A DNA stretch of 64,000 bases, from positions 1,820 through 65,819 of the forward strand of contig JASJCW010000006.1 in the NCBI GenBank assembly GCA_030065265.1. The letters run 5' to 3'. The DNA is from Prochloraceae cyanobacterium. GTDB taxonomy: Bacteria; Cyanobacteriota; Cyanobacteriia; Cyanobacteriales; JASJDA01. Of the stretch, positions 990 to 64,000 are shown piece after piece. Position numbers and translations under genes: made by a program. How positions within the stretch are numbered: the stretch's first letter is position 1; every line of letters begins with the position of its first letter. A model generated the notes under the pieces. That model did no database searches. It had not been told where the DNA came from and saw nothing but the letters and a program-made list of their open reading frames with translations.

Positions 990-2325
990 TTTTAGCAAGA
1001 TTCGCGAGAATCCTACGATTGTAATCTTTGATTCAATCGTAGATGAATCGCCACCCAGATTTTTTTTTGTGCTATAATTATTTATAGTAAATTAAATTTG
1101 CTCTAAATGCTCAAAGTAGTCAAAGTAAGATTATATCCAAATAGCCAGCAGCAACAAGCCTTAAGCCAGTCTTTTGGTAATACTCGCTGGCTTTGGAATT
1201 ATTGTCTTAATTTGATGAATCAAACTTATATAGATACAGGAAAAGGATTATCGGGATACGAAGTTAAAAAACGAATACCACAACTGAAAAAAGAATACGA
1301 GTGGTTAAAGTTAACTTACTCTCAATGTTTGCAGCAAGTTTGTTTGAACCTTGGTACTGCTTTTAATAACTTCTTTGAACGAAGAGCTAAATATCCTCGT
1401 TTTAAATCAAAGCATGGTAAGCAATCTATACATTATCCTCAAAATGTTAAGCGGATAGAGGATTGTTTAAGGCTGCCAATGATAGGGGACGTAAAAGCAG
1501 TATTTCATCGAGAAATAAAAGGGAAAATAAAGACTGTAACTGTATCTAAGAATAAATCAGATCAATACTATGCTGCTATTTTATTTGAAGATGGAAAAGA
1601 TCAACCAGAAACAAATACTAATGGGAAAGCAATAGGTATAGACCTGGGAATTAATCACTTTGCTATAACTAGTGATGGTAGCAAGTTTGACAACCCTAGA
1701 TGGTTGACTAAACACGAGCATAATTTAAAAATTAAGCAACAAAGATTATCTAGAAGGGAGAAAGGATCTAGTAACAGAAATAAAGCTAGAAAAATTGTAT
1801 CTAAAGTACATAAAAAAATAGCTGATTGTCGCTCTGATTTTCATCACAAGCTATCACGCAGGATAGTAGACGAAAACCAAGTTATTGTAGTTGAAAATCT
1901 AGCAGTTTCAAATATGGTCAAGAACCGCAAACTATCCAAGGCTATAAGTCAAGTTGGCTGGGGACAATTCTGTACTATGCTTAAATATAAAGCAGAACAA
2001 GAGGGGAAAGTATACCAAGAAGTAGATAGGTTCTTTCCTAGCTCAAAAACTTGTAATGTTTGCCTTAACCAAGTGGATAGTTTGCCTCTTGAAATAAGAT
2101 TTTGGAACTGTTCTAACTGCGGTACTAAGCACATAGATCGTGATGTCAACGCCGCCAAAAACATCCGAGATGAAGGACTGCGAATTATTTCCTCTGGGAC
2201 GGGGGATAAAGCCTATCGCCAAACTGTAAGACGAAGTAATAGAGGACGCAAGAAATCTACTACATCGCTTGTTTCTGGGTAGGAAGCTGCTCTTGTAATC
2301 TCTGATTCAAGAGCGGTAGTTCACT
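990..2325 (+). mobile_element. IS200/IS605-superfamily TnpB-only element (no TnpA); boundaries approximate
   Basis: The tnpB ORF is flanked by two hairpins with nearly the same 12-nt loop. Left: ctacgattg-TAATCTTTGATT-caatcgtag (1013..1042). Right: gctcttg-TAATCTCTGATT-caagagc (2289..2314). This is typical of IS200/IS605 subterminal hairpins. Confidence 0.65.
1107..2282 (+). CDS. tnpB: TnpB (IS200/IS605 OrfB-type RNA-guided RuvC nuclease), apparently intact
   Basis: RuvC triad context is present: GIDLGINHFAITSDG (D), VVVENLAVSNM (E), DRDVNAAKNI (D). Zinc ribbon CNVC...CSNCG. Size of 391 aa is typical. Confidence 0.9.
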   Translation: MLKVVKVRLYPNSQQQQALSQSFGNTRWLWNYCLNLMNQTYIDTGKGLSGYEVKKRIPQLKKEYEWLKLTYSQCLQQVCLNLGTAFNNFFERRAKYPRFKSKHGKQSIHYPQNVKRIEDCLRLPMIGDVKAVFHREIKGKIKTVTVSKNKSDQYYAAILFEDGKDQPETNTNGKAIGIDLGINHFAITSDGSKFDNPRWLTKHEHNLKIKQQRLSRREKGSSNRNKARKIVSKVHKKIADCRSDFHHKLSRRIVDENQVIVVENLAVSNMVKNRKLSKAISQVGWGQFCTMLKYKAEQEGKVYQEVDRFFPSSKTCNVCLNQVDSLPLEIRFWNCSNCGTKHIDRDVNAAKNIRDEGLRIISSGTGDKAYRQTVRRSNRGRKKSTTSLVSG

Positions 2326-3985: not shown

Positions 3986-4456
3986 TTAAATCCGTGTTCC
4001 TGGGAACACCGATTCATTTTCACTCAAAGAAACTTTTTTGACCATCCAAGCTGTTTCGCCTCCTATTTTACCTTTCTTGAGAAATACCCAATTGCCTCTA
4101 ACAAAAAGATTGACATTCTTTTTAGTCTTAGGTCGAACTCCGATAATTGCCTTTACTTCTGAGGTAGTGAGCAGCCATCATAATTCGCAGGAGGGTACTG
4201 CAACTATAAAACGAAAGCGATTTAAAACAACGCAGTTGTTGCGCTTAAAGTTTTTAGTTGTAGGGGAATCCTGCGCCAACCCTTTATGCAGCACGCGAAT
4301 GTATGGTAAAATACATAAACTCAACTTAAGACACGAAGACTTAAAAAAGAACAGGTGAAATACCTGATACACAACCGCGTATGCAGTCTGCCAATCATTG
4401 GTGAACAGACAATCGTCAGGGGTATAAATTAGACGCTTTTTTAGGAAGTGAATCAT
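3986..4456 (-). pseudogene. possible disrupted gene: ORF 4178..4456 continues in frame after a TGA (4178..4180) into a protein-like C-terminal remnant
   Basis: Minus-strand frame after the TGA reads WLLTTSEVKAIIGVRPKTKKNVNLFVRGNWVFLKKGKIGGETAWMVKKVSLSENESVFPGTRI*, with no usable start codon. The upstream part overlaps non-coding element A. Confidence 0.25.
3989..4014. repeat. Dispersed 26-bp palindrome, copy 2 of 8 (aatccgtgttcctgggaacaccgatt)
   Basis: Read directly. Overlaps the last codons (..NESVFPGTRI*) of the minus-strand coding remnant 3986..4177. Confidence 0.85.
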
Positions 4457-10773: not shown

Positions 10774-11433
10774 TTATTGATTTTTTACGCTCGTGGAGTC
10801 CCCTGCGCGAAATACAGATGGCATTATATCTGAGGTTATTGTTTTAGATTCAGAATTGTTGACAATTTTTATCCCTTGAATCAGATCTCGAATAAAGACC
10901 AGATCGGTGGAAATGTAATTTTCAGGTAGCGACTGTTCGATCTCTTCTATCTGCCACTGAGAGCGATCGCAATTTAACAGCAGGTTGCCTGCTATTTTTA
11001 CAGCTAGAGTAAAGTAAGGCTTATAACCGACTGTCCCATTTAATGGCAATTGCTTTGCTTCTATTTTGAGAAAAGAAATTATAGCCTTTTGTAAGTGGGA
11101 GTAAGAACTAATTTTACTGTCATTGGCTAAAAAATACAAAAAATCTTCTAACTCATTTGAAGTCTCTAAATGTTCTGGGATGCTAACTTGTAGATTAGAT
11201 TTGCTTTGAAAGTCCTGTACTCTTTTGATAGTTTCTATGAAATTTTGTATTTCCTCGCCACTTTTTTTAAGACTTTTAGATTCGAGGCAATCTTGAAAGC
11301 TACGCAAACAACAGATTAAAAAGTCAGATTTGTAGCTGACAATCTTGCCTAATTCAGAATCCGCTAATATTCTTTTAAACTCAGTAGGGAACGATTTTAT
11401 TAATCGTTGTATCTTTTTCTCGTCTAGTTTCAT
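10774..11433 (-). CDS. hypothetical protein (219 aa)
   Basis: ORF from the track. Its ATG overlaps the terminase ATG on the other strand (CATGATG, 11431..11437). Confidence 0.55.
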   Translation of the reverse strand: MKLDEKKIQRLIKSFPTEFKRILADSELGKIVSYKSDFLICCLRSFQDCLESKSLKKSGEEIQNFIETIKRVQDFQSKSNLQVSIPEHLETSNELEDFLYFLANDSKISSYSHLQKAIISFLKIEAKQLPLNGTVGYKPYFTLAVKIAGNLLLNCDRSQWQIEEIEQSLPENYISTDLVFIRDLIQGIKIVNNSESKTITSDIMPSVFRAGDSTSVKNQ

Positions 11434-12877
11434 GATGCTAAATAGAATTATTACCCCTAAATATAAAGGTAAAATAAAAGACTGGGGTAAACTGCATTCA
11501 TTTACTCAAACTGTGGATGCTGCGAGTTATCCAGTGTTCGAGCCAAATCCTGGCGGTCAACAGGAAATCTTTGATCGTCTCTCTCTCAGTAGCATTTATG
11601 GCGGTGCTTATCGCTGGTATTGGATCCTCGGTGGCATAAACTCAGGTAAGTCTACTTGTGCTGCTGCTTTTATCTGCAATCAAGCCAGATTAGATCCCAG
11701 TATTAGAATACTCATAACTGCTAACAGCTATCCTCAGCTAATGATGAGTACTTTAGTTGCTCTAGCTGAATTCTGCGAGAAATTTGGCTACAAGCTAGAA
11801 CCATCTCTACCTTCGCCAGAAGACACAGCAGCAAAAATAGCAGCATTAAAGCATTGTAAAATAGAAGGTGCTTATTGTTTCGTCAGATCTGCTGATAGTT
11901 TCACTGGTGCAACTGAAAAAGCCAAACAAGGAGGCCGCGGCATACAAGTAAGAATTGTTTGGTGGGACGAGGGAAGTTACAACGATCGTATGTGCTTTCA
12001 AACTATAGACGGACGTTTAGGACGTGGCGCGGGTAGTGTAAAAGGGATAGGAATAATCAGCAGCAGTATCAATAGGATTAACCCATTTAACTGGACATAC
12101 GATCTATTCGCTAGCGATCGTCGAGATGAATTACAAAAGCAGATATATGGTAGTACGATTATCCCCACCACGGAAAACATACACGCCGATCCCGATTTCG
12201 TACGATCTCAAGAAGCTTCACTTACTCCAGAATTAAGAGCATTAGAACTCGAAGGTAGATTCGTTAGCATTACCACTGGTCGAGTGTTCAATTACTTCAA
12301 ACGCGATCGCCACTTAAAATCGCTATCAGTCAATCTCAATTTATACGTGTGTGTCTCTTTTGATTTCAACCGATCGCCAGCTACCTGCTTGATAGCACAG
12401 AGCAGTGGACGATCGGTTGAAGTGGTAAGAGAGTTTTATTTATTGGAATCGGACACCATGCAACTAGCTGAAGCTGTGGCACAGTATCTAAGGAAATTGG
12501 GAGTTTCTGTATTAGTATATGGCGACAGTACGGGCATTCAAAGAACAGCTAATAGTAAATTTACAAACTGGCAAATAGTCTGGGATACCTTTAGCAGACA
12601 TGGGGTTTATGGCGTTAGAAAATATCCCGATCGCAATGCCAGCGTTTTAGATAGCGTCCACAGCGTCAATAATGCTTTCAATCGAGATGAGATCTTTATC
12701 GATCCTAGCTGTAAGGAACTCATAGCAGATCTGGAATTTTTGACGTGGGATAAAAATGACAAAATAGACAAGCGCGACATCAAGCGATCGCACTTAGGTG
12801 ATTGTTTGAGATATTTGATAGATGGCATACTTCCATATAGAAGAGAAACCATCAAGAGATCTGGTCGTTGGGGCTGA
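11432..12877 (+). CDS. terL: terminase large subunit
   Basis: Walker A ILGGINSGKSTCAA. Walker B RIVWWDEGS. C-terminal nuclease-like acidic motifs (VSFDFN, VYGDSTG, GDCLRY). ATG at 11432 chosen within the track ORF 11345..12877. Confidence 0.9.
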   Translation: MMLNRIITPKYKGKIKDWGKLHSFTQTVDAASYPVFEPNPGGQQEIFDRLSLSSIYGGAYRWYWILGGINSGKSTCAAAFICNQARLDPSIRILITANSYPQLMMSTLVALAEFCEKFGYKLEPSLPSPEDTAAKIAALKHCKIEGAYCFVRSADSFTGATEKAKQGGRGIQVRIVWWDEGSYNDRMCFQTIDGRLGRGAGSVKGIGIISSSINRINPFNWTYDLFASDRRDELQKQIYGSTIIPTTENIHADPDFVRSQEASLTPELRALELEGRFVSITTGRVFNYFKRDRHLKSLSVNLNLYVCVSFDFNRSPATCLIAQSSGRSVEVVREFYLLESDTMQLAEAVAQYLRKLGVSVLVYGDSTGIQRTANSKFTNWQIVWDTFSRHGVYGVRKYPDRNASVLDSVHSVNNAFNRDEIFIDPSCKELIADLEFLTWDKNDKIDKRDIKRSHLGDCLRYLIDGILPYRRETIKRSGRWG

Positions 12878-14453: not shown

Positions 14454-15974
14454 GTGGTTAATCTCTCCGAGTTAAACTCTAACTCACTTTTCCTCGCTCC
14501 CACAGGAGATGTAAGCAAAAAGGATCCCGACTACCTAAAAAATTTACCTACCTTAATCTACTTAGAAGATATGTGGACGGGTTTAGAAAATTGGTACAAA
14601 GACGGAATTGTAATTGATGTCCTAAAAGCTGAAAGATATCTACCTAAATTCAAGTATGAAGACGACGGTATCTACAGAAATAGATTGGCTCTGACTAGTT
14701 GGGACGATAAGTTTAAACGTACTATAGAGCAAGATTTAGCTGGCTTGCTCTCAAAAATGGTTGTGTCTAACTTGCCACCTACTTTAGAAGAGAATATAAA
14801 CAATGTAGATTTAAGCGGGAACTCATTAGACGTTGTTCTCAAGACATTAGATGTGTTGTCACTGAGAGACGGATCTGCATTTTGCTTGATCGACTTTCCC
14901 AACGAATCGCCACCACAGAACGAACTTGAAAGGAGGCGATTGCGATCGAGACAGCGACCTTATTTAGTCCCCATACCGAGAAAGCAGATAATAAACTGGA
15001 AGTATTCTAACGCTAGTGGCAATCTAACCATAGAGCAAGTCGTCATCAAGAGGGAGATTAAGAAGTATTTAGATCGTTTCGATCGCCAGTACGTCACTCA
15101 ATATCTAGTCTTAGAACCTGGTACGTTTGAAATTTACGAGAAAACTGATGCTGTCTCAACAGAAGAGTTAATCTTAGTAAACCGCGGTCAAACGAGCTTA
15201 GACTTCGTTCCCATTGTCGGATATTCGTTGCACTCGTCAGATCCTTTCCTGGCTGATTTCCCTTTAAAGTGCATAGCCGATCTGAATCTAGATTTATATC
15301 GCTACGATGCCGATCTAAAGTGGTCTCAACACCTTGCTAATTGCCCTACATTAGTTTATGAAACGATGTCAAAAGTCAAAGACGGAACTCTCCAAGGTAC
15401 GCAGCAAACTAAACAAGATGAAGAGTTAAAGATCGGTGCAGGGCAAATAATTTTTGCTGAATCTAAAGTTTACTGGTTGGAGCTAGAAGGGAAAACTCTA
15501 GAGTCAACTATGAAACTAATGCAGTTGACTAACGAGAATATCGATCGCAAGTCTATTGGATATCTCACAGGTATTCTCGGCAAGCAAAAAACAGCCACGG
15601 AAATCAGTATAAATGCCTCGCAAGCTGAAGCCAACCTAGAAGCTATATCGAAACAAAAGCAATCGGCGATCGAGCAAATATTGAGAGTTTGGCAATCTTA
15701 CACCAACGAAAATGTAGAGCCAGAATTCAGCTTCGATACTAGCTTCTTAACTAAATCACTCCAAAATACAACATTGAGCGATTATCGGGAATCTTGGCTA
15801 GTTGGGTGGCTTTCACATTCACTTTCTCTGAAATTAGCCAGTGATGCTGGTGCATTCCCTAAGCCGCTTAGCGATCGCGAACTTGAAGATGAATTAAGCA
15901 ATAATAGGGTAGAATCTCAATTAACTCCACCGCCAATATTACCGAGCGAGCCAGACGAGAGAGGCAATGTATGA
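14454..15974 (+). CDS. putative portal protein
   Basis: 506-aa ORF and the first structural-size gene after terL (ignoring the inserted cassette). Acidic C-terminus. GTG start. Called from position and size only. Confidence 0.5.
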   Translation: MVNLSELNSNSLFLAPTGDVSKKDPDYLKNLPTLIYLEDMWTGLENWYKDGIVIDVLKAERYLPKFKYEDDGIYRNRLALTSWDDKFKRTIEQDLAGLLSKMVVSNLPPTLEENINNVDLSGNSLDVVLKTLDVLSLRDGSAFCLIDFPNESPPQNELERRRLRSRQRPYLVPIPRKQIINWKYSNASGNLTIEQVVIKREIKKYLDRFDRQYVTQYLVLEPGTFEIYEKTDAVSTEELILVNRGQTSLDFVPIVGYSLHSSDPFLADFPLKCIADLNLDLYRYDADLKWSQHLANCPTLVYETMSKVKDGTLQGTQQTKQDEELKIGAGQIIFAESKVYWLELEGKTLESTMKLMQLTNENIDRKSIGYLTGILGKQKTATEISINASQAEANLEAISKQKQSAIEQILRVWQSYTNENVEPEFSFDTSFLTKSLQNTTLSDYRESWLVGWLSHSLSLKLASDAGAFPKPLSDRELEDELSNNRVESQLTPPPILPSEPDERGNV

Positions 15975-48197: not shown

Positions 48198-49376
48198 ATG
48201 GTAGTCAACGTAATACAGGACATTGTACCCAGTATTAGAGCTACTGGCGCTGCTGTACTGAGAGCTTATAATCTCTTCCCTAATTTGATAAATAGTAGTT
48301 ATTCTGTGGATGCCAGACAGCCAGGATCTGCGGTTGAAGTTTCTATACCTCCGACAATAACGACTAGAAAAGTAGTTCCAGGCAATATCCACCCAGCAAG
48401 CACGCCTTTTACTGTTGGCTCGGTTCCGATAGTATTAGACTTTTTTGAAGAATCTGAATTCGGGTTGCCTGAAGACGAACTCGGAAAAATACAGAATAGA
48501 GAGGTATCCTCGTTTACTCAATCAGCAGCAGTATCGATCGTTCAGGCTGCAAATACTTATACCATCAATAAGATGTATAAGCGATCGTACAATGTTATTG
48601 GGGATGTAGCTACAACGCCTTTTGAAAACGGTACTACTTCTTACGCGAATAGAGCCAGAAGAGTATTAGATGAGAATCTAGCTCCGAATAACGATCGCTA
48701 TCTGGTGCTAGATCTATTTGCTGACGAGAAAGCGTCGAGTTTAGATTTATTCCTGAGAGTCAATGAATCTGGGACTGACCTAACTTTAAGAACTGGTGAA
48801 ATAGGAACTAAGCTTGGATTTAGTTGGTGGCGGACTCAATTAATGCCCCGTCACGAATCAGCTCCAGGACTTGACGGTGCTTATCAAATTGATTCTACTA
48901 CCCACGCGATTGACGACACTCAAGTGACTATTTCTCAAGTGGGAGGCGCGCCTAACGTTGATTTTGTTGAAGGTGACATATTTACTGTCGCTGGGGATGC
49001 CCAAACATACGTGGTAACTAAAACTGAAGTAGGTGTAAATAGCGGCGATCTTACTTTGCAATACTTGCCAAAAGCTAAAACTGCTTTCGCTGACGACGCG
49101 ATTATAAGTGTAATTCCTACTCACACTGTTAGTTTAGCTTTCCACAGAAACAGCACTGGTTTTGCTAATAGATTGTTATTTGTTGATGAATTTCAACATC
49201 AAATGCCTGGAAAGATCATCGAGCCAGTTAGAGATCCTGAAAGTGGATTGACCATGACTTACCTTGCTAGCCCGCAGTACTACCAAACAAGCCACGCTTA
49301 CAGTATCCTTTGCGGAGCAGCTGTGATCCGCCCAGAGCATATAGTTAGAATAATAGGCAATCCCAACCCTGCTTAG
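48198..49376 (+). CDS. major capsid protein (P22 coat-like, HK97 fold with insertion domain)
   Basis: 392 aa, after the scaffold gene. The N-terminal pattern (..LRAYNLFPNLINSSYSVDARQPGSAVEVSIPP..) resembles P22-coat-family proteins as I recall them. No search was run. Confidence 0.65.
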   Translation: MVVNVIQDIVPSIRATGAAVLRAYNLFPNLINSSYSVDARQPGSAVEVSIPPTITTRKVVPGNIHPASTPFTVGSVPIVLDFFEESEFGLPEDELGKIQNREVSSFTQSAAVSIVQAANTYTINKMYKRSYNVIGDVATTPFENGTTSYANRARRVLDENLAPNNDRYLVLDLFADEKASSLDLFLRVNESGTDLTLRTGEIGTKLGFSWWRTQLMPRHESAPGLDGAYQIDSTTHAIDDTQVTISQVGGAPNVDFVEGDIFTVAGDAQTYVVTKTEVGVNSGDLTLQYLPKAKTAFADDAIISVIPTHTVSLAFHRNSTGFANRLLFVDEFQHQMPGKIIEPVRDPESGLTMTYLASPQYYQTSHAYSILCGAAVIRPEHIVRIIGNPNPA

Positions 49377-56973: not shown

Positions 56974-58686
56974 TTACTGACAGATAAAAGCTTGCTTCTT
57001 AGCACGAGTAAGAGCAGTGTATAAAATCTTTTGTCTGTCAGAGCATCTGTTTAAATCTGGCAAATCTAGAAAGGTAAAATCTATCGAGCTACCTTGCGCC
57101 TTATGCGTAGTTAGAGCGTAAGCAAAAGGCATATTATCAAAGTATTTAGAAAGCTGTTGGAACAGATTCCATTGTTTTTCATCTTTGTACTTTTTAAGGA
57201 TTTTACCTCTTTTTATTTCTGACTGTGGCGTGAGTATTTGCAAATCTACAGTTGCTCCATCGTCAGCTTTAACTCTCACTTGATAATATTCTAATTCCCC
57301 TTCTTTAATACTGCCTTCAACATAAGTCTTTAGAGTTGGCTCGCACAAAACCGTACACTCTTCAGAATTATTTATTATAATGCAATCTTCAGATACCTTG
57401 CCTATGCCTATTTTGGCAAATACAGGAGTTCTAGCAATCAAGCGATCGCCAATACAATAAGGATCGCAATTGTTCCCCCACAGTTGCAGCCTGACAAATC
57501 TATTTAGCTCGTCAGCTACTTTATTTCTGAATACTATAAATCTTACATCTTGCTTGGATTTAAAAAACTCCCCTGCGCGAGTCATCCATTTAATTCTAGG
57601 CAAGCTGACAATAGTCTTATCTTCAGTAGTGACGAAAGGATAACCTCTTTTATTCCACTTCTCATCACTTCTAATTTCTTCAGCTACCTTGGCTATTTCC
57701 CCGTCATAACGAACTATTTCTAAAAGTTCTAAAGTCTTGTCAATATCGTCACTCAGATCTACTGCCGGCTCTTGTTCCCCCACTGGCGGGAGCTGCATAG
57801 AATCGCCCACGATAACTAATTTTAGATCGCTGCATTCAGCTTCGCCGATCAACTCTTGATAATTCTTAGAATTAATCATAGAGTATTCGTCAATTACAGC
57901 AACGTCAAAACTCTCCAAATCTATTTTATTGTGAGCTTTCCCAGATATAAACTCTTCTTTCCCTGTTTTTTTATTTAATACTGGCTGCTGTCCTAATAAC
58001 TGTGCTACTGTATGAGTTCTTATATCTTCTAATCCAGCTTCATCAGCAATTGAAACTAGATTCTTTAAAGCTTTGTTGGTAGGGGAAGCAGCTACAAATT
58101 TAACTCGATTCACTCTCAACCATCTTAAATATTCAACTATTAAAAATGTTTTCCCTGTTCCTGCATAGCCGCATAATTTTAGATACTTTTGTTCTGTATT
58201 ATAAGTGAATTTTTTCAAAGCTATCATAGCTTTCTCTTGAGACTTTTTAAGTTTCTTACTGCTTATTTGTGCAATTTCAATTTGTTCAATACTACTTACA
58301 TCCTCTTCATAGTATTCAATCTCTTGCTGTTCAGGAGGTTCCTCCTCTAAAGTCATGTTTTCGTAAAAATCATTCTCTCTCTTTTGTGCTGCAAGTAAAC
58401 TACTTTCTTGTAAAATTGAATAGCCGATCGCTTCGTGGGATAGCAAGCTTAAGATAGTCTTACATACTCCCACAAAATCTTCTGAAAATAGATTTTCATT
58501 ATCCTTAAAAGCATAAAGAAATCCATAATATTTCTCTATTTTTTTTAATAATTCTATATCTAAAAAAACTGGCGATATTTTGCCAGAGTCTAGAGCAGTT
58601 GCCAAATTTTGCAACAATTCAGCATATTCAGTTTTTACTCTAATGCTAGAGATTTTTTTTTGATAAGCTCGTCTAGTTTGTGTCAT
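56974..58686 (-). CDS. SF1 RecD/Dda-like DNA helicase
   Basis: Walker A GYAGTGKTF, Walker B AVIDEYSMI, VGDSMQLPPV, TTHKAQGSS, LYTALTRAKK. Confidence 0.85.
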   Translation of the reverse strand: MTQTRRAYQKKISSIRVKTEYAELLQNLATALDSGKISPVFLDIELLKKIEKYYGFLYAFKDNENLFSEDFVGVCKTILSLLSHEAIGYSILQESSLLAAQKRENDFYENMTLEEEPPEQQEIEYYEEDVSSIEQIEIAQISSKKLKKSQEKAMIALKKFTYNTEQKYLKLCGYAGTGKTFLIVEYLRWLRVNRVKFVAASPTNKALKNLVSIADEAGLEDIRTHTVAQLLGQQPVLNKKTGKEEFISGKAHNKIDLESFDVAVIDEYSMINSKNYQELIGEAECSDLKLVIVGDSMQLPPVGEQEPAVDLSDDIDKTLELLEIVRYDGEIAKVAEEIRSDEKWNKRGYPFVTTEDKTIVSLPRIKWMTRAGEFFKSKQDVRFIVFRNKVADELNRFVRLQLWGNNCDPYCIGDRLIARTPVFAKIGIGKVSEDCIIINNSEECTVLCEPTLKTYVEGSIKEGELEYYQVRVKADDGATVDLQILTPQSEIKRGKILKKYKDEKQWNLFQQLSKYFDNMPFAYALTTHKAQGSSIDFTFLDLPDLNRCSDRQKILYTALTRAKKQAFICQ

Positions 58687-59540: not shown

Positions 59541-60605
59541 TCAAAAAAGATCGTTCCTAGCTCCCACAACTATTACTCTTTCCCTGGACTGTGGAACCCC
59601 GTAATACTTAGAATTCAGCAATTGTCCTTTTACTTTGTATCCGCAGCTTCTGAGGTCGCTGACAGCAGATAGATAAAATGGTTTCATGTGACCTTTGACT
59701 ATCCCGCTAACATTTTCCATGACAAAGCATTTAGGTTGAAATCCCTGAACCAGCCTAACGAATTCCTTAAACAGAGTATTCCTAGAATCTGTGGCTCTCC
59801 GCTTGCCAACAGTAGAAAATCCTTGACATGGGGGACTACCTTGTAAGCAATCTAATTCCTTTGGCTTTAATCCAGTCAAGTTAAGAGCTTCTTCTACTGA
59901 CAGCTTTGCTATATCTCCATGAAAAACAGGAACGTTAGGAAAATTCATTTTAAAAGTAGCTATAGCGTTATCATCCCATTCAACTGCTAAAAGTTCTTTG
60001 AACCCTGCTAAGTGGAACCCTAAAGAAGATCCTCCACACCCAGCAAAAAGACTAACTACTGTGGGGGAGTCCACTTTTTTCAAGAAAGAAGATTGCTTTA
60101 AATTGAGAGCGATCGCTCTTGCTAGCAGTGGAGGAACTGAATTGCCCATCCTAGCCAACCTATCCTCAAAACTTCCCACAAATATAAAATCGTCTGGAAA
60201 TGAACATAGTCTTTGTATTTCCTCTATCGATAGATAGCGCTTGCCACTAGGATGGATTAATCCTGCTCTAGCGATCCATTGTTTAGTAACAGTGGGAGCA
60301 ACTTTTTTCCAGTAGAGAGGCATAAACCCTATAAACCCACCTGTCTTGCCAGTGTGCTTCAACAAAGCTTCTCTCATGTAGCGACAGCGATAATTTTTAT
60401 GGGGATTAATTTTGTAATATTCTTGGCAAGCTTTTTGCAAGTTTTCAGATAAATATTTAAATTCAAATACAGACTTTTCAGGTAAGTCTTTAAAAGCTTC
60501 TTTAATAGTAATGGGCTTGCTTTGCGGCTTAGGGTGAAAAAACCATTCACCATCGATATCCGCATTGAGGACATTTGTGATTAGGAGTCTTGAGTTTTTC
60601 TTCAT
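59541..60605 (-). CDS. DNA cytosine-5 methyltransferase with circularly permuted motif order (IX-X before I-VIII)
   Basis: Order in the ORF: RYLSIEEIQRLCSFPDDF (IX), GNSVPP (X, aa 154-159), FAGCGG (I, aa 187-192), PPCQGFS (IV), ENV (VI), QSRER (VIII, aa 339-343), then stop. Confidence 0.8.
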   Translation of the reverse strand: MKKNSRLLITNVLNADIDGEWFFHPKPQSKPITIKEAFKDLPEKSVFEFKYLSENLQKACQEYYKINPHKNYRCRYMREALLKHTGKTGGFIGFMPLYWKKVAPTVTKQWIARAGLIHPSGKRYLSIEEIQRLCSFPDDFIFVGSFEDRLARMGNSVPPLLARAIALNLKQSSFLKKVDSPTVVSLFAGCGGSSLGFHLAGFKELLAVEWDDNAIATFKMNFPNVPVFHGDIAKLSVEEALNLTGLKPKELDCLQGSPPCQGFSTVGKRRATDSRNTLFKEFVRLVQGFQPKCFVMENVSGIVKGHMKPFYLSAVSDLRSCGYKVKGQLLNSKYYGVPQSRERVIVVGARNDLF

Positions 60606-61158
60606 CTATATCTTGATTGTCTTCAGGAATTTCAATTTCTTTAAAAGTTTCTAACAATTCATCTAAGTTATCTTCAACTGCTATAGGGAGGGAACTTTCA
60701 GATTGCAGTAAATCTAGCTGCTGTTGTAAATTCTCAGCATCGAACATCGAAATAATTTCCTCTAAGCTTACCTCGCTACCCCACAGCACCGACCAATTAT
60801 GTTCGATACTGAATGCGACTGCTTCAGCTTCACTGGTAGAATTCACGCCGAATACCACTGGCACTAACCAATCTTCTTTTAATCCCCTAGGCAAATTGAG
60901 ATTTTGCGATCGCATTTCAATCAAACTTTCTAACCTACCATTCCCAGCTACAATTCCACCTTTCCCGTCGTTCAAATTAGGGTCGAACACCAAAGGATCC
61001 CTAAATCCATATCTGCGTATGGATTCAATTAGTTTAGCTACATCGTGTTTTTTAGAATTGTTATCTAGAAAGTGTTTTTCTAAGTTGTCTAAGGAGACGT
61101 AATGAACGGCGATCGCGTCCCCTGTCTTTTTTGCCAATTGATTTAAATCAGTATCCAC
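60547..61158 (-). CDS. ParB-like nuclease domain protein with C-terminal CPQCG half zinc ribbon
   Basis: FRDPLVFDPNLNDGKGGIVAGNGRLESLIEM. Overlaps the methyltransferase ORF by 59 nt in another frame. Confidence 0.6.
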   Translation of the reverse strand: MDTDLNQLAKKTGDAIAVHYVSLDNLEKHFLDNNSKKHDVAKLIESIRRYGFRDPLVFDPNLNDGKGGIVAGNGRLESLIEMRSQNLNLPRGLKEDWLVPVVFGVNSTSEAEAVAFSIEHNWSVLWGSEVSLEEIISMFDAENLQQQLDLLQSESSLPIAVEDNLDELLETFKEIEIPEDNQDIDEEKLKTPNHKCPQCGYRW

Positions 61159-61250
61159 AAGCTATGTTAGAATTCAGCCAACCAATTAATGTTAAAAAGC
61201 GATCGCGTTAGCACTCCGAAATAATAAACGCGATTTTTTTTTGATTGTCG

Positions 61251-61270
61251 ATACAATAATATTGTTGTAT
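61251..61270. promoter_or_regulatory. operator-like palindrome atacaataatattgttgtat, related to those at 6588..6605 and 6658..6675
   Basis: Shares ACAATAATATT-TTGT with the 6.6-kb sites. About 95 nt upstream of the 61158 start. Confidence 0.5.
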
Positions 61271-61333
61271 GACTTCAGAAAGCTCATTTTTCAATGCTGA
61301 CTGTTGCTCCACAAATTTAGTCAGTATTTTTTT

Positions 61334-63139
61334 TCAAAACGGCAAGTCGAGCCCCACCACGTCACCAAATTTATTTTTAATTAACTCGTATCCTTCTTTT
61401 TCAGCAGTAGCGATCGCATTAGGTCTCAGAATATCATCCTGTAATTCTCTTTTAAGGCGATCGAGTTTCTCATTCAATAATTGCGAGCGAGATTTTTTAG
61501 GTTCTGTTTTTAACCCCTTACCAAAGTTGCTCCGAAACTTAGCTAATTTCTCTTTTAAAGCTTGCATCTGTTCTGTAGTAGCTGGATTGTCGTCTTTCTC
61601 AGGTTTCCAGGGCTTATAAGCTTCAGCGTTGTTTACAGCTCCATATTCATCTGTAGGCAATGATGCTATGCTTTTATTATTATCATTGATAGTTGCCCGA
61701 TCGCTCTTAATCTCCTCTTGAGCAATCGGTTTTTTAGTTTCTACAAGAATTCGGTTTTGTTGAACTTCTGATAATGGAGCAACAGAATTAGTATTTTGTT
61801 GCAATCCTTTATCCTCATAGGACATCTCTGGGGGCAATGGTTTGGCAACAGCCCGAACATTATTTTTAAGTTCTTTCTCTTCTTCAATGCCAACTGTGCA
61901 GCCGTGGGAGAGCCTTAAATCGGCATTCTCATACTTAGCCAAATAAGTCTCGCTATATTGCTCCCATCGAATAACTAGCTTACTCAAATCGTTCTTGTAG
62001 TAAGCCAATACGTTCGCTTTGGCTTCGTATTTATCCTTACAATCAAATCGCTCCATCCACCAACTGACAGACCACTTGACAAACTCAGGATCTAATTTTC
62101 CTGGCTCCGTACACCAAACGCCGTCGGGAATCCAGTTCAAAGCTTCTTGCAACCTGTCCATATTCGTTTGTTTCGGATTCGCCGCGCGATGTTTCAATTT
62201 TCTTTCAAACGTACTACACGCGGAGTAAACTTCCCTTTGGGATAAATTCGGATTTGCCACGATAGCGGTGGTAGTTTCTTTATCCGAAGTCGATACGGTT
62301 TCGGTTTGTTGGTCTATTGTTTCAGCTTCAACTAATTGGCTTGTTTGCTCTTGTTTAAATTCCTCAACCTTTGTATTTGTCTCCTCGTTATCTAGCCAAA
62401 AATCTTCCAAATTTTCTTGCTCGCTCTTAGAGTATGAAAAGTCTGGATTAGTCTGTATAGTCTGAGGCGTTCCGCGATCCGTTGGGAGTGCGGGTTTCGG
62501 CGATTGCTCGCGACATTGGTGTCGTGAGTCCGACATTGGTGTCGTGGTGGCGATATTGGTGTCGTGAGACGGGGAAATTTCCCCTAACCCTTGCTGTGTA
62601 TTGACTTCAGCCACTTTTTTATCTATTTTAGGGGATTTTTTCCCTTTTTCCTTTGGTCGATTAGGGAAAATTTCCCCTTCGCCTTGCCCTGCTTTGGTTT
62701 CGGGGTTTGAGGGATTAGGGGATTTTTCCCCTTTCTCTTGCTGTGCCTTGGTTTTAGAGTCTCTTTTGTATTTAAGTCTGTCAGATTCTTGTTTTGCCTT
62801 ATAAGCAGTTAGGTTATGCCCCTGCCATTTAGTAACCCTGTGATCGTACAGTCCGAGTTGTTTTAGTCTGCGCATAGCTCGAACTACCGAGTCTGTATCT
62901 GCACCTATAGCAATAGCTATTTCTGTTGGTGGGGGGATATCTTTGTATATAATGTCGTCCCCTGTTTGAGTGCGATCGCCAAATCGATCGACAATCATCA
63001 AGTAGATCCAAGTACGGCAAAGTATGCCAGAAGCTTTGTCGGCTAGTAAAGCGGCGGCATCTTTACAGCTTGCCATAAAGTAGCCTTCTAGAAAATCATT
63101 CACTTTTATTTCTGGGTAGTTTATTCTTTTAGTCTTCAT
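61334..63139 (-). CDS. replication-initiator-like protein (N-terminal winged-helix-like domain, low-complexity linker carrying iterons)
   Basis: 601 aa. N-terminus ...PPPTEIAIAIGADTDSVVRAMRRLKQLGLY. Position in the replication block and the embedded repeats (62511..62731) suggest a lambda-O-like arrangement. This is an inference. Confidence 0.45.
   Translation of the reverse strand: MKTKRINYPEIKVNDFLEGYFMASCKDAAALLADKASGILCRTWIYLMIVDRFGDRTQTGDDIIYKDIPPPTEIAIAIGADTDSVVRAMRRLKQLGLYDHRVTKWQGHNLTAYKAKQESDRLKYKRDSKTKAQQEKGEKSPNPSNPETKAGQGEGEIFPNRPKEKGKKSPKIDKKVAEVNTQQGLGEISPSHDTNIATTTPMSDSRHQCREQSPKPALPTDRGTPQTIQTNPDFSYSKSEQENLEDFWLDNEETNTKVEEFKQEQTSQLVEAETIDQQTETVSTSDKETTTAIVANPNLSQREVYSACSTFERKLKHRAANPKQTNMDRLQEALNWIPDGVWCTEPGKLDPEFVKWSVSWWMERFDCKDKYEAKANVLAYYKNDLSKLVIRWEQYSETYLAKYENADLRLSHGCTVGIEEEKELKNNVRAVAKPLPPEMSYEDKGLQQNTNSVAPLSEVQQNRILVETKKPIAQEEIKSDRATINDNNKSIASLPTDEYGAVNNAEAYKPWKPEKDDNPATTEQMQALKEKLAKFRSNFGKGLKTEPKKSRSQLLNEKLDRLKRELQDDILRPNAIATAEKEGYELIKNKFGDVVGLDLPF
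62511..62570. repeat. three tandem 20-bp iterons, each with an internal palindrome CGACA-TTGG-TGTCG
   Basis: cgacattggtgtcgtgagtc / cgacattggtgtcgtggtgg / cgatattggtgtcgtgagac, read directly inside the initiator-like ORF. Confidence 0.8.
62571..62731. repeat. four GGGGA(W)nTCCCC boxes adjacent to the iterons
   Basis: ggggaaatttcccc (62571..62584), ggggattttttccc (62631..62644), gggaaaatttcccc (62664..62677), ggggatttttcccc (62718..62731). Confidence 0.75.
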
Positions 63140-64000
63140 CGTATTTCGCAGCAGGAGACCCCCGACTCTGTCGGCGGGAGGAATGCTGCGCCTCCAAGTA
63201 AAAGTTTGCAGATTAATCCGGTAGCGCGTTGCAATAAATGCACTTTGCTACGCGAAAACTGGGCTATGCGTTTCCAGTTAATATCGGATACGGATACTTG
63301 TGTTTTGGTATCTCCAGATACCCAACCGTGATATTGAATACCTTTTTTTTCGGCTTTGACATAATCGCCTTTTCGGAACCCATGACGAGTAACAGTTCCA
63401 CCATATTTTCTTCTTACGCCACCTGGGGCAAAAACCATTAAGTGAAGTTGTCTTCTCGATATAGGTGGACGACGAATTATGGTAAATGGTGCAGACGTAA
63501 TATTTACCTGACCTTGCCAGCAATGACCTCGACCTGAAGAATTTTCAAAGGGGAGATAATCTCTAAATTGACTAGCAGCCAAGACCACGCCATCAACTGC
63601 ATGAGTAGCAGGGACAGCATCTGCTTTTGAGTATTTTTGTTTTTCTAAGCCCAGATGTTTTCTCAGATTAGAGGTTTGCCAACCAAGTTTTGTCACTACT
63701 GGTGCTAATTTTTCTAGCTGTTCGATTGCCCATTTTTGACCAACCATAACAGCAGAAAACCCAATACCTGAACGGGCTTGTTTCCGCCTCGAAGTTAGAT
63801 CGACATCCGCTTTGACGTACTCGTACACAATCGAACTAAGGGGATAAACTTTGCCTAGTTCGGATATGACCCGAATTTCTAACTGACGGTTGGCACGTAT
63901 ACTGGGAGCGACTTTTTTTTGTCTGCGATTATCAAATCGCTTTTGACGATGGGCGCGAGCTTCAAAAGGTAGTTGACGGTTAATTCTTCTGCCTCTCCGA
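63136..64000 (-). CDS. isrB: IsrB-like OMEGA nuclease (IscB family lacking HNH), 5' end beyond the window
   Basis: My translation upstream of the track ORF gives RRGRRINRQLPFEARAHRQKRFDNRRQKKVAPSIRANRQLEIRV (Arg-rich bridge helix). Then YEYVKADVDL (RuvC-II E) and no HNH (no CxxC/H-N-H). Then ATHAVDGVVLAA (RuvC-III). C-terminus is RRQLH...GGVRRKYGG...GFRKGDYV...G.VSG. Confidence 0.75.
   Translation of the reverse strand, partial: RRGRRINRQLPFEARAHRQKRFDNRRQKKVAPSIRANRQLEIRVISELGKVYPLSSIVYEYVKADVDLTSRRKQARSGIGFSAVMVGQKWAIEQLEKLAPVVTKLGWQTSNLRKHLGLEKQKYSKADAVPATHAVDGVVLAASQFRDYLPFENSSGRGHCWQGQVNITSAPFTIIRRPPISRRQLHLMVFAPGGVRRKYGGTVTRHGFRKGDYVKAEKKGIQYHGWVSGDTKTQVSVSDINWKRIAQFSRSKVHLLQRATGLICKLLLGGAAFLPPTESGVSCCEIR
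63148..63189. other. imperfect hairpin at the 3' end of the IsrB element (candidate right-end structure)
   Basis: Outer arms gcagca...tgctgc with inner ccgac-tct-gtcgg. Ends about 10 nt from the ATG (63139) of the initiator-like gene. Confidence 0.45.

Follow-up and report, generated by a model that had tools for sequence, protein, structure and literature searches.

A probable ISC1-type transposon insertion carrying isrB at the start of a phage gene in a Prochloraceae assembly

An IsrB-bearing element in a cyanophage-like genome

The stretch of DNA analysed here (the window) is 64,000 nt long and comes from a metagenome-assembled genome (MAG) of a Prochloraceae cyanobacterium (GenBank assembly GCA_030065265.1, contig JASJCW010000006.1, positions 1,820 to 65,819). 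At its far edge the minus strand carries an open reading frame (ORF) that runs in from outside the window and whose stop codon overlaps the ATG of a phage gene encoding a 601-aa protein. By comparison with relatives, we identify this ORF as part of a transposon insertion, a non-autonomous ISC1-type element of the IS200/IS605 superfamily that carries isrB, the gene for an HNH-less relative of the RNA-guided nuclease IscB. It is very probable, in our judgement, that such an element transposed into the ~66-kb cyanophage-like genome of this MAG, with the consequences proposed below. The copy is intact and belongs to an element family that has been described before, and related copies are already present in sequenced Microcystis phages. 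The initial annotation of this DNA had pointed to an IsrB here, and the ORF, motifs and overlap that it listed are all present. The principal features are as follows, with residues compared to those of DtIsrB (the IsrB of Desulfovirgula thermocuniculi, PDB 8DMB) and a slash marking the point of insertion.

63140..64000, minus strand: the 861 bp of the IsrB element inside the window, part of an ISC1-type (IS200/IS605 superfamily) element of ~1384 bp whose remainder would extend to about 64523
63136..63999, minus strand: isrB ORF, C-terminal 287 codons plus TGA, with bridge helix, RuvC-II, short HNH-like linker, RuvC-III and target-adjacent motif (TAM)-interacting (TI) domain
63820..63822, minus strand: codon for the RuvC-II catalytic Glu (fragment E60, aligned to DtIsrB E160; column invariant)
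63592..63603, minus strand: RuvC-III HAVD motif (fragment H133 and D136, aligned to DtIsrB H227 and D230)
63259..63270, minus strand: RIAQ, predicted TAM-reading Arg and Gln (R244 and Q247, aligned to DtIsrB R323 and Q326; both columns invariant)
63147..63190, minus strand: two-tier subterminal imperfect hairpin of the left end (LE), presumed Y1-transposase binding structure
63136..63139, minus strand: ATGA target site (N/ATGA), also predicted IsrB TAM, start codon of the 601-aa gene and source of the isrB TGA stop
61334..63139, minus strand: 601-aa phage gene, giving a weak winged-helix signal at the N-terminus of its product and conserved in the C-terminal domain, its native ribosome-binding region displaced by the insertion

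The ORF encodes an IsrB protein

The isrB frame occupies 63999..63139 on the minus strand, 287 open codons followed by a TGA stop at 63138..63136; its translation opens RRGRRINRQLPFEARAHRQKRFDNRR and holds VYEYVKADVDL and PATHAVDG. A bridge helix (RRGRRINRQ...HRQKRFDNRR) at the start of the fragment corresponds to positions 97-165 of the Pfam RRXRR profile, which matches the fragment with E 2.9e-13, and can be aligned to 8DMB. The latter is the only solved structure that was matched strongly (phmmer, E 4.9e-30; the alignment carries a chain offset of 149 residues). The fragment has 2492 homologues and is matched by the PHROG family phrog_32617 (E 8e-120). Invariance of the catalytic Glu, His and Asp columns and of the TAM-reading Arg and Gln columns was scored in an alignment with 15 relatives (A1). 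Fragment residues 177-266 align to the TI domain of DtIsrB, in which R323 reads G3 and Q326 reads A4 of the NTGA TAM (Hirano et al. 2022, PMC9581776); the Arg and Gln of RIAQ accordingly predict a TAM of the NTGA type for the window protein.

The N-terminal part was recovered from protein P0133 (MDJ0723772.1), which is 391 aa long, is encoded on a Prochloraceae MAG contig of 66,353 bp and belongs to the best cluster (P0001, 91% identical). Its residues 105-391 are identical to the window ORF. It begins MNRVPVIDKNKKPLMPT..., also carries GVDPGKKYSGIGV, and has both a PLMP segment (...NKKPLMPTKPS...) that aligns to the PLMP domain of DtIsrB and a RuvC-I motif (GVDPGKKYSG) that aligns to AVDPGAKYDG of DtIsrB, the two proteins being alignable over residues 2-370 of P0133 (E 1.1e-55). 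A Pfam scan of the fragment and of P0133 gave RRXRR alone and no HNH domain. The 72 residues between E60 and H133 include no Cys and give the same spacing as in DtIsrB, the NCBIfam model guided_IscB scores 37 bits on the fragment against a cut-off of 175, and IscB structures align with only the N-terminal ~120 residues of P0133, which does not have the make-up of an HNH-containing IscB. The earlier IsrB assignment, which had been staked on the full-length protein having RuvC-I and no HNH domain, is thus borne out by the 8DMB match, the conserved catalytic residues and the architecture of P0133, and the window ORF can be described as the C-terminal part of a 391-aa IsrB.

The likeness to DtIsrB extends over PLMP, RuvC-I, bridge helix, RuvC-II, short HNH-like linker, RuvC-III and TI domain. 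Unlike DtIsrB (~353 aa), however, the window protein, 391 aa at full length, has an extra C-terminal tail that is encoded by the transposon-end hairpin. GstIscB resembles the system at the level of the element, having its omega RNA at the right end (RE), a TAM that equals the target motif, and ATGAA on the IscB strand, which matches ATGA(A); it differs in possessing an HNH domain and making double-strand breaks, whereas IsrB is a nickase.

The ORF is intact, and isrB is under purifying selection: the ratio of nonsynonymous to synonymous divergence (dN/dS) is 0.13 against the relative at locus L001 and 0.16 against that at locus L002. Divergence from L001 is mosaic, with synonymous sites saturated in the first 80 visible codons (63760..63999) and synonymous divergence of 0.16 in 63139..63759, which suggests recombination between IsrB lineages.

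Ends and target site of the element

L001 and L002 are copies in unrelated chromosomal contexts (L001 adjoins a 2Fe-2S protein gene; L002 is in a Prochloraceae MAG), and the window element is 89-93% identical to them in DNA. Homology to both runs past the isrB stop codon and ends after ...GAAATACG ATGA(AGA). Their lengths, 1384 bp for L001 and 1380 bp for L002, imply that the window holds about 62% of the element. The rest can be read from L088, a 1393-bp contig from another assembly that is 100% identical to window positions 64000..63133 over 868 nt. L088:526-1386 corresponds to the window part of the element (63140..64000), the flanks diverge beyond the end ...ACG/ATGA, and the contig starts TA/GTCAACTACC, giving a 5' terminus GTCAAC. 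The element part of the window has a G+C content of 44.6% versus 37.5% for the window as a whole, in the top 0.6% of 861-nt windows.

In all, 79 loci were fetched from cyanobacterial genomes, which hold several copies each, and the closest copies lie beside unrelated genes. The end layout is constant in 55 independent copies among loci L001-L064: TTCCTCCC, a variable hairpin, GGGT.TCC, 10-16 nt, G/ATGA, then unrelated sequence. ATGA directly follows essentially all 55 ends, with ATGG in a minor sub-family. The same site is known from ISC1-1_MA of Microcystis aeruginosa NIES-843, for which empty sites established an N/ATGA target without duplication and termini 5'-GTCA...CG-3' (Kapitonov et al. 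2016, PMC4810608). Like the window element, ISC1-1_MA is cyanobacterial and non-autonomous, encodes only an HNH-less protein (IscB1, equivalent to IsrB), and has these termini, this mode of insertion and subterminal imperfect hairpins. The window copy differs in coming from a Prochloraceae/Pleurocapsales-type lineage, in lying in a phage-like genome and in having an isrB whose frame crosses the hairpin and ends at the target TGA. On the protein side, DtIsrB has an NTGA TAM and accepts ATGA and TTGA (PMC9581776), and the TAM of IscB nucleases is the target motif of TnpA, being TTCAT for GstIscB, or ATGAA on the IscB strand (Meers et al. 2023). The constant layout, the empty sites of Kapitonov et al. 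and the identity of TAM and target described by Meers et al. together place the last element base at 63140 and make ATGA (63139..63136) phage DNA. The overlap of stop and start codons at 63136..63139, which the initial annotation had taken for a precise placement at a gene boundary, is therefore real but not a special placement: it is the published N/ATGA target and predicted TAM.

A second phage case is found in Ma-LMM01, whose gp171 (an RRXRR protein), together with homologues in MaMV, is 64-66% identical to 89% of the fragment and lies in a block of DNA-metabolism genes. As in the window, the element end (...TTTTTCG/ATGA) abuts an annotated start codon, that of gp170 (L089:3262-3325), which is just upstream of a clamp-loader gene. 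The Ma-LMM01 copy differs in belonging to another sub-family, in having an ORF that stops before the hairpin, and in carrying four tandem GTCACTAACC units upstream. These units (L089:1847-1960, upstream of gp171) start GTC(A/G)CTAACC, that is, the 5' terminus of the element together with the first hairpin. They recur at spacings of 38, 38 and 28 nt ahead of the IsrB omega-RNA scaffold and look like repeated modules of transposon end and guide adaptor.

The omega RNA

The omega RNA of IscB lies at the RE of the transposon and takes its 5' guide from outside (Meers et al. 2023). In L088, positions 3-193 match the Rfam family HEARO (RF02033) over the full model at 46.9 bits (E 4e-8), below the gathering score of 83. 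The ~210-nt region upstream of isrB in 14 relatives has 34 predicted pairs, 25 of which covary. At the gathering threshold, Rfam finds nothing in the window and, in 12 relatives, only an unrelated group II intron, none of them reaching HEARO gathering. Scores of this kind suggest that the IsrB omega RNA here is a divergent branch of the HEARO class, which the L088 scaffold resembles in its full-model match and from which it departs in scoring below threshold. A search with nhmmer using the omega-RNA alignments revealed no second omega RNA in the window, which also contains no tRNA.

In one cyanobacterial MAG a group II intron domain (L006:3770-3848; RF00029, 42 bits, just over gathering) is found directly upstream of the IsrB ORF, where an omega RNA would be expected.

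The end hairpin

Within the last 17 isrB codons lies a two-tier hairpin, with an outer stem pairing 63184-63190 with 63147-63153 and an inner stem pairing 63170-63178 with 63159-63166. As single-stranded DNA it folds with -14.2 kcal/mol (z = -2.4), and 3 of 200 shuffled sequences fold as well. Among 11 copies from the nearer sub-families, 10 of the 11 predicted pairs are kept via changes on both sides, the outer-stem variants including CGCAGCA/TGCTGCG, CGGCG/CGCCG and GCGCGAA/TTCGCGC. The same architecture is seen in all 55 ends listed, and a comparable hairpin lies just inside the opposite terminus in relatives and in L088; in L014, as in L052, the hairpins of the two ends have loop sequences in common. 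We read the structure as a conserved, covarying transposon end. The initial annotation had proposed a candidate right-end structure; the hairpin stands, but by the convention of Meers et al. (2023) the end with the omega RNA is the RE, so that the hairpin end in the window is the LE.

Might the hairpin work mainly as RNA, as a terminator, stabiliser or translational regulator of the downstream gene, and not as DNA recognized by TnpA? It lies within the isrB mRNA, 7 nt upstream of the ATG of the 601-aa gene; a ribosome ending isrB must melt it, which fits coupling; and covariation cannot separate pairing in RNA from pairing in single-stranded DNA. However, no T-run follows the hairpin, and a scan gave no terminator-like site. 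Moreover, IS200/IS605 and ISC elements are defined by imperfect subterminal hairpins at either end that serve as substrates of TnpA (PMC4810608), and relatives such as L014 and L052 have the matching hairpin inside the other terminus. We consider a mainly RNA-level role improbable.

The downstream phage gene

The TGA of isrB overlaps the ATG of the 601-aa gene at 63139..63137. Element-free homologues of the protein begin MKTK, as the window protein does, the start reading ATGAAAACTAAA; in L087 it is preceded by AGGAG and 12 nt, then ATGAAAACTAAA. The comparison with relatives lacking the insertion that had been suggested earlier was made with loci that carry a related gene: in four of them (L081, L082, L084 and L087) there is no IsrB upstream of the related gene, and an ordinary small gene lies 15-70 nt upstream instead. 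We considered whether ATG 63139 belongs to the element, with the true start at M22, but rejected this in view of the MKTK starts in element-free homologues and the published empty sites. Between isrB and the 601-aa gene, a scan of the minus strand gave no promoter-like or terminator-like site.

The label "replication" or "initiator" that the gene had first been given was a guess from its position. Profile searches of Pfam, PHROG, NCBIfam and PDB with the 601-aa protein returned just weak winged-helix hits, and the label, being unproven, has been dropped for that reason. No relatives of the protein were found in IMG/VR or among GenBank phages, and an exact-protein look-up gave no database record for the 601-aa product or for P0121. 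Look-ups with the methylase and a 203-aa protein gave just an 8.8-kb Logan contig that ends inside the 601-aa gene. Members of the 601-aa family (P0122-P0129) have a conserved C-terminal region of ~400 aa and at least three unrelated N-terminal winged-helix-like modules that are swapped between relatives.

Insertion, resident gene or relic

Could isrB have been domesticated as a resident gene of the phage, say as an RNA-guided factor, and not be part of a recently inserted transposon? Homologues occur in the cyanophages Ma-LMM01 and MaMV and in phrog_32617, and isrB is intact, under purifying selection and co-oriented with the operon. Against this, the transposon ends are complete and homology to the chromosomal copies stops sharply at ATGA, an identical element-sized contig of 1393 bp exists (L088), the G+C content of the element is foreign to the window, and the four related loci with the 601-aa gene have no IsrB upstream. 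The Ma-LMM01 copy itself has the same end and ATGA junction and hence is also an insertion sequence copy. Domestication thus strikes us as very improbable, and we prefer an insertion.

Several points nevertheless weigh against the insertion as we describe it. The N-terminus, omega RNA and guide lie beyond the window, the first two being inferred from P0133 and L088, through which the recovery called for at the outset was reached indirectly; and the HEARO match of L088 falls short of the gathering score. The three closest copies have ATGAAGA in common past ...ACG, which alone would allow a boundary up to 7 nt further outward; such a boundary is argued against by the MKTK start kept in element-free homologues and by the 'TA' 5' flank of L088. 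Finally, ten small ORFs of the window were scanned for Y1_Tnp (the host genome was not searched) and gave no hit; current mobility is therefore unproven, and mobilization would need a host TnpA.

This last point bears on whether the copy is now a relic, immobile or inactive, stranded without its cognate TnpA or with a non-functional guide. Besides the missing transposase, most IscB and IsrB elements are without tnpA (Meers et al. 2023), and a solo end-like remnant at 4178..4283 (described below) shows that such elements decay in this genome. The ORF, however, is full-length with all catalytic and TAM residues, the ends are intact, dN/dS is 0.13, an identical copy exists in another assembly, and a host TnpA can work in trans. 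On balance a relic is unlikely.

A megablast search with window positions 61000-64000 gave no match in phages or plasmids, and an exact 63-mer from the window end had none in viral_contigs or genome_contigs.

Start-codon placement across the family

Of the 55 independent insertions, 30 (55%) have a target ATG that begins an ORF of 80 codons or more, compared with 16% of 2730 control ATGA sites drawn from the same loci (binomial p 9e-11). Ten such ORFs were tested by Pfam and all proved to be real genes, with domains that set in among the first 4-35 residues; three response regulators, a HAD hydrolase, an RNase III and a DNA polymerase of family A are among them. GGAG or AGGA is present 5-14 nt before the ATG at 11 of the 55 element ends. 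In the sub-lineage of the window the isrB frame crosses the hairpin and takes its stop codon from the target TGA. The exact position at a gene boundary follows from the 4-bp target ATGA containing ATG. ATGA/GTGA junctions are reportedly described as start codons in Weinberg's HEARO paper of 2009.

These patterns raise the possibility, which we put forward tentatively and regard as somewhat doubtful, that the ATGA target makes the cyanobacterial IsrB/ISC1 family start-codon-seeking, with an outward end adapted to keep the downstream gene translated, and that in a phage the element works as a homing nickase, guided by RNA, against co-infecting genomes that lack it. There would then be two modes of keeping translation, either by extending the isrB frame to the target TGA (the window sub-lineage) or by placing GGAG or AGGA 5-14 nt before the ATG (the others). 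Both the read-through stop and the GGAG/AGGA features may be adaptations, or they may reflect survivorship.

Proposed mechanism

On the minus strand the complete element would read 5'-GTCAAC..., a ~212-nt omega-RNA scaffold of the HEARO class, isrB (391 aa), the hairpin and ...ACG-3'. We propose that a Y1 TnpA acting in trans, probably supplied by the host, would insert it immediately 5' of ATGA without duplication. The target ATGA here forms the first four bases of the phage gene (ATG AAG ...), and the empty site would consist of the upstream flank plus ATGAAGACT, with the junction at 63140/63139. Insertion would leave the phage coding sequence intact and cut off its own upstream signals. Given insertion at the ATG and the stop-start overlap in ATGA, the phage gene most likely shares a transcript with isrB and is translated through termination-reinitiation.

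By analogy with homologues, IsrB and its omega RNA would nick the empty site (the upstream flank followed by ATGA), using a guide read in from the upstream flank. Such nicks would help the element to be retained and, in mixed infections, to be copied into phage genomes without it. The analysis establishes what the protein is, where the element ends, its target site, the end hairpin and, in an identical copy, the omega RNA; mobilization by a TnpA in trans, co-transcription and translational coupling, nicking of the empty site and homing between phages are what we infer.

Other features of the window

The phage-type genes of the window comprise a TerL-like gene (11345..12877), a portal-like gene (DUF4055, 14454..15974), a P22-type coat gene (48198..49376) and a Dda-like helicase gene (56974..58686); a C5 methylase, ParB-like proteins and a Rad52-like protein are also encoded. 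One further mobile-element gene is present:

1107..2282, plus strand: TnpB (Pfam OrfB_IS605, Cas12f1-like_TNB, HTH_OrfB_IS605)

[quoted passage not shown] The region upstream of TnpB has no match to the IsrB end profile, which indicates that the two elements do not share ends.

A solo structure resembling a transposon end is found at 4178..4283 on the minus strand. It reads TTGG.GCGCAGGATTCCCCTA, a long hairpin with a 7-bp outer stem (CGCAGGA/TCCTGCG), then GCAGTACCCTCCTGCGAATTATG/ATGG, and is like the ATGG-target sub-family (L009, L010 and L062; nhmmer E 0.0045). With no IsrB or TnpB ORF beside it, the structure could represent a remnant or else a miniature element.

The C5 cytosine methylase (59541..60605, minus strand) matches Pfam DNA_methylase in two stretches, with the N-terminal half of the profile falling on residues 182-353; this order may point to a circularly permuted enzyme. 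At its start, 59 nt are shared with the ParB-like ORF that precedes it.

The HIP1 octamer GCGATCGC occurs in 34 copies in 64 kb at 37.5% G+C, far above the expectation from composition, which suggests a long association with a HIP1-rich cyanobacterial host.

Implications

Both in this MAG and in phages of the Ma-LMM01 type, the entry "RRXRR domain-containing protein" is better named IsrB in an ISC1 element. The element may also provide a candidate for a compact nickase with an ATGA TAM. The placement at a gene boundary requires no new biology. If the family does seek start codons, its insertions would be near neutral, and read-through would provide the element with the transcription that its guide needs. 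The family pattern, with about half of the 55 insertions exactly on real start codons, opens two questions to testing: how do elements of the IS200/IS605 type stay harmless, and do phage OMEGA nickases drive homing between co-infecting phages?

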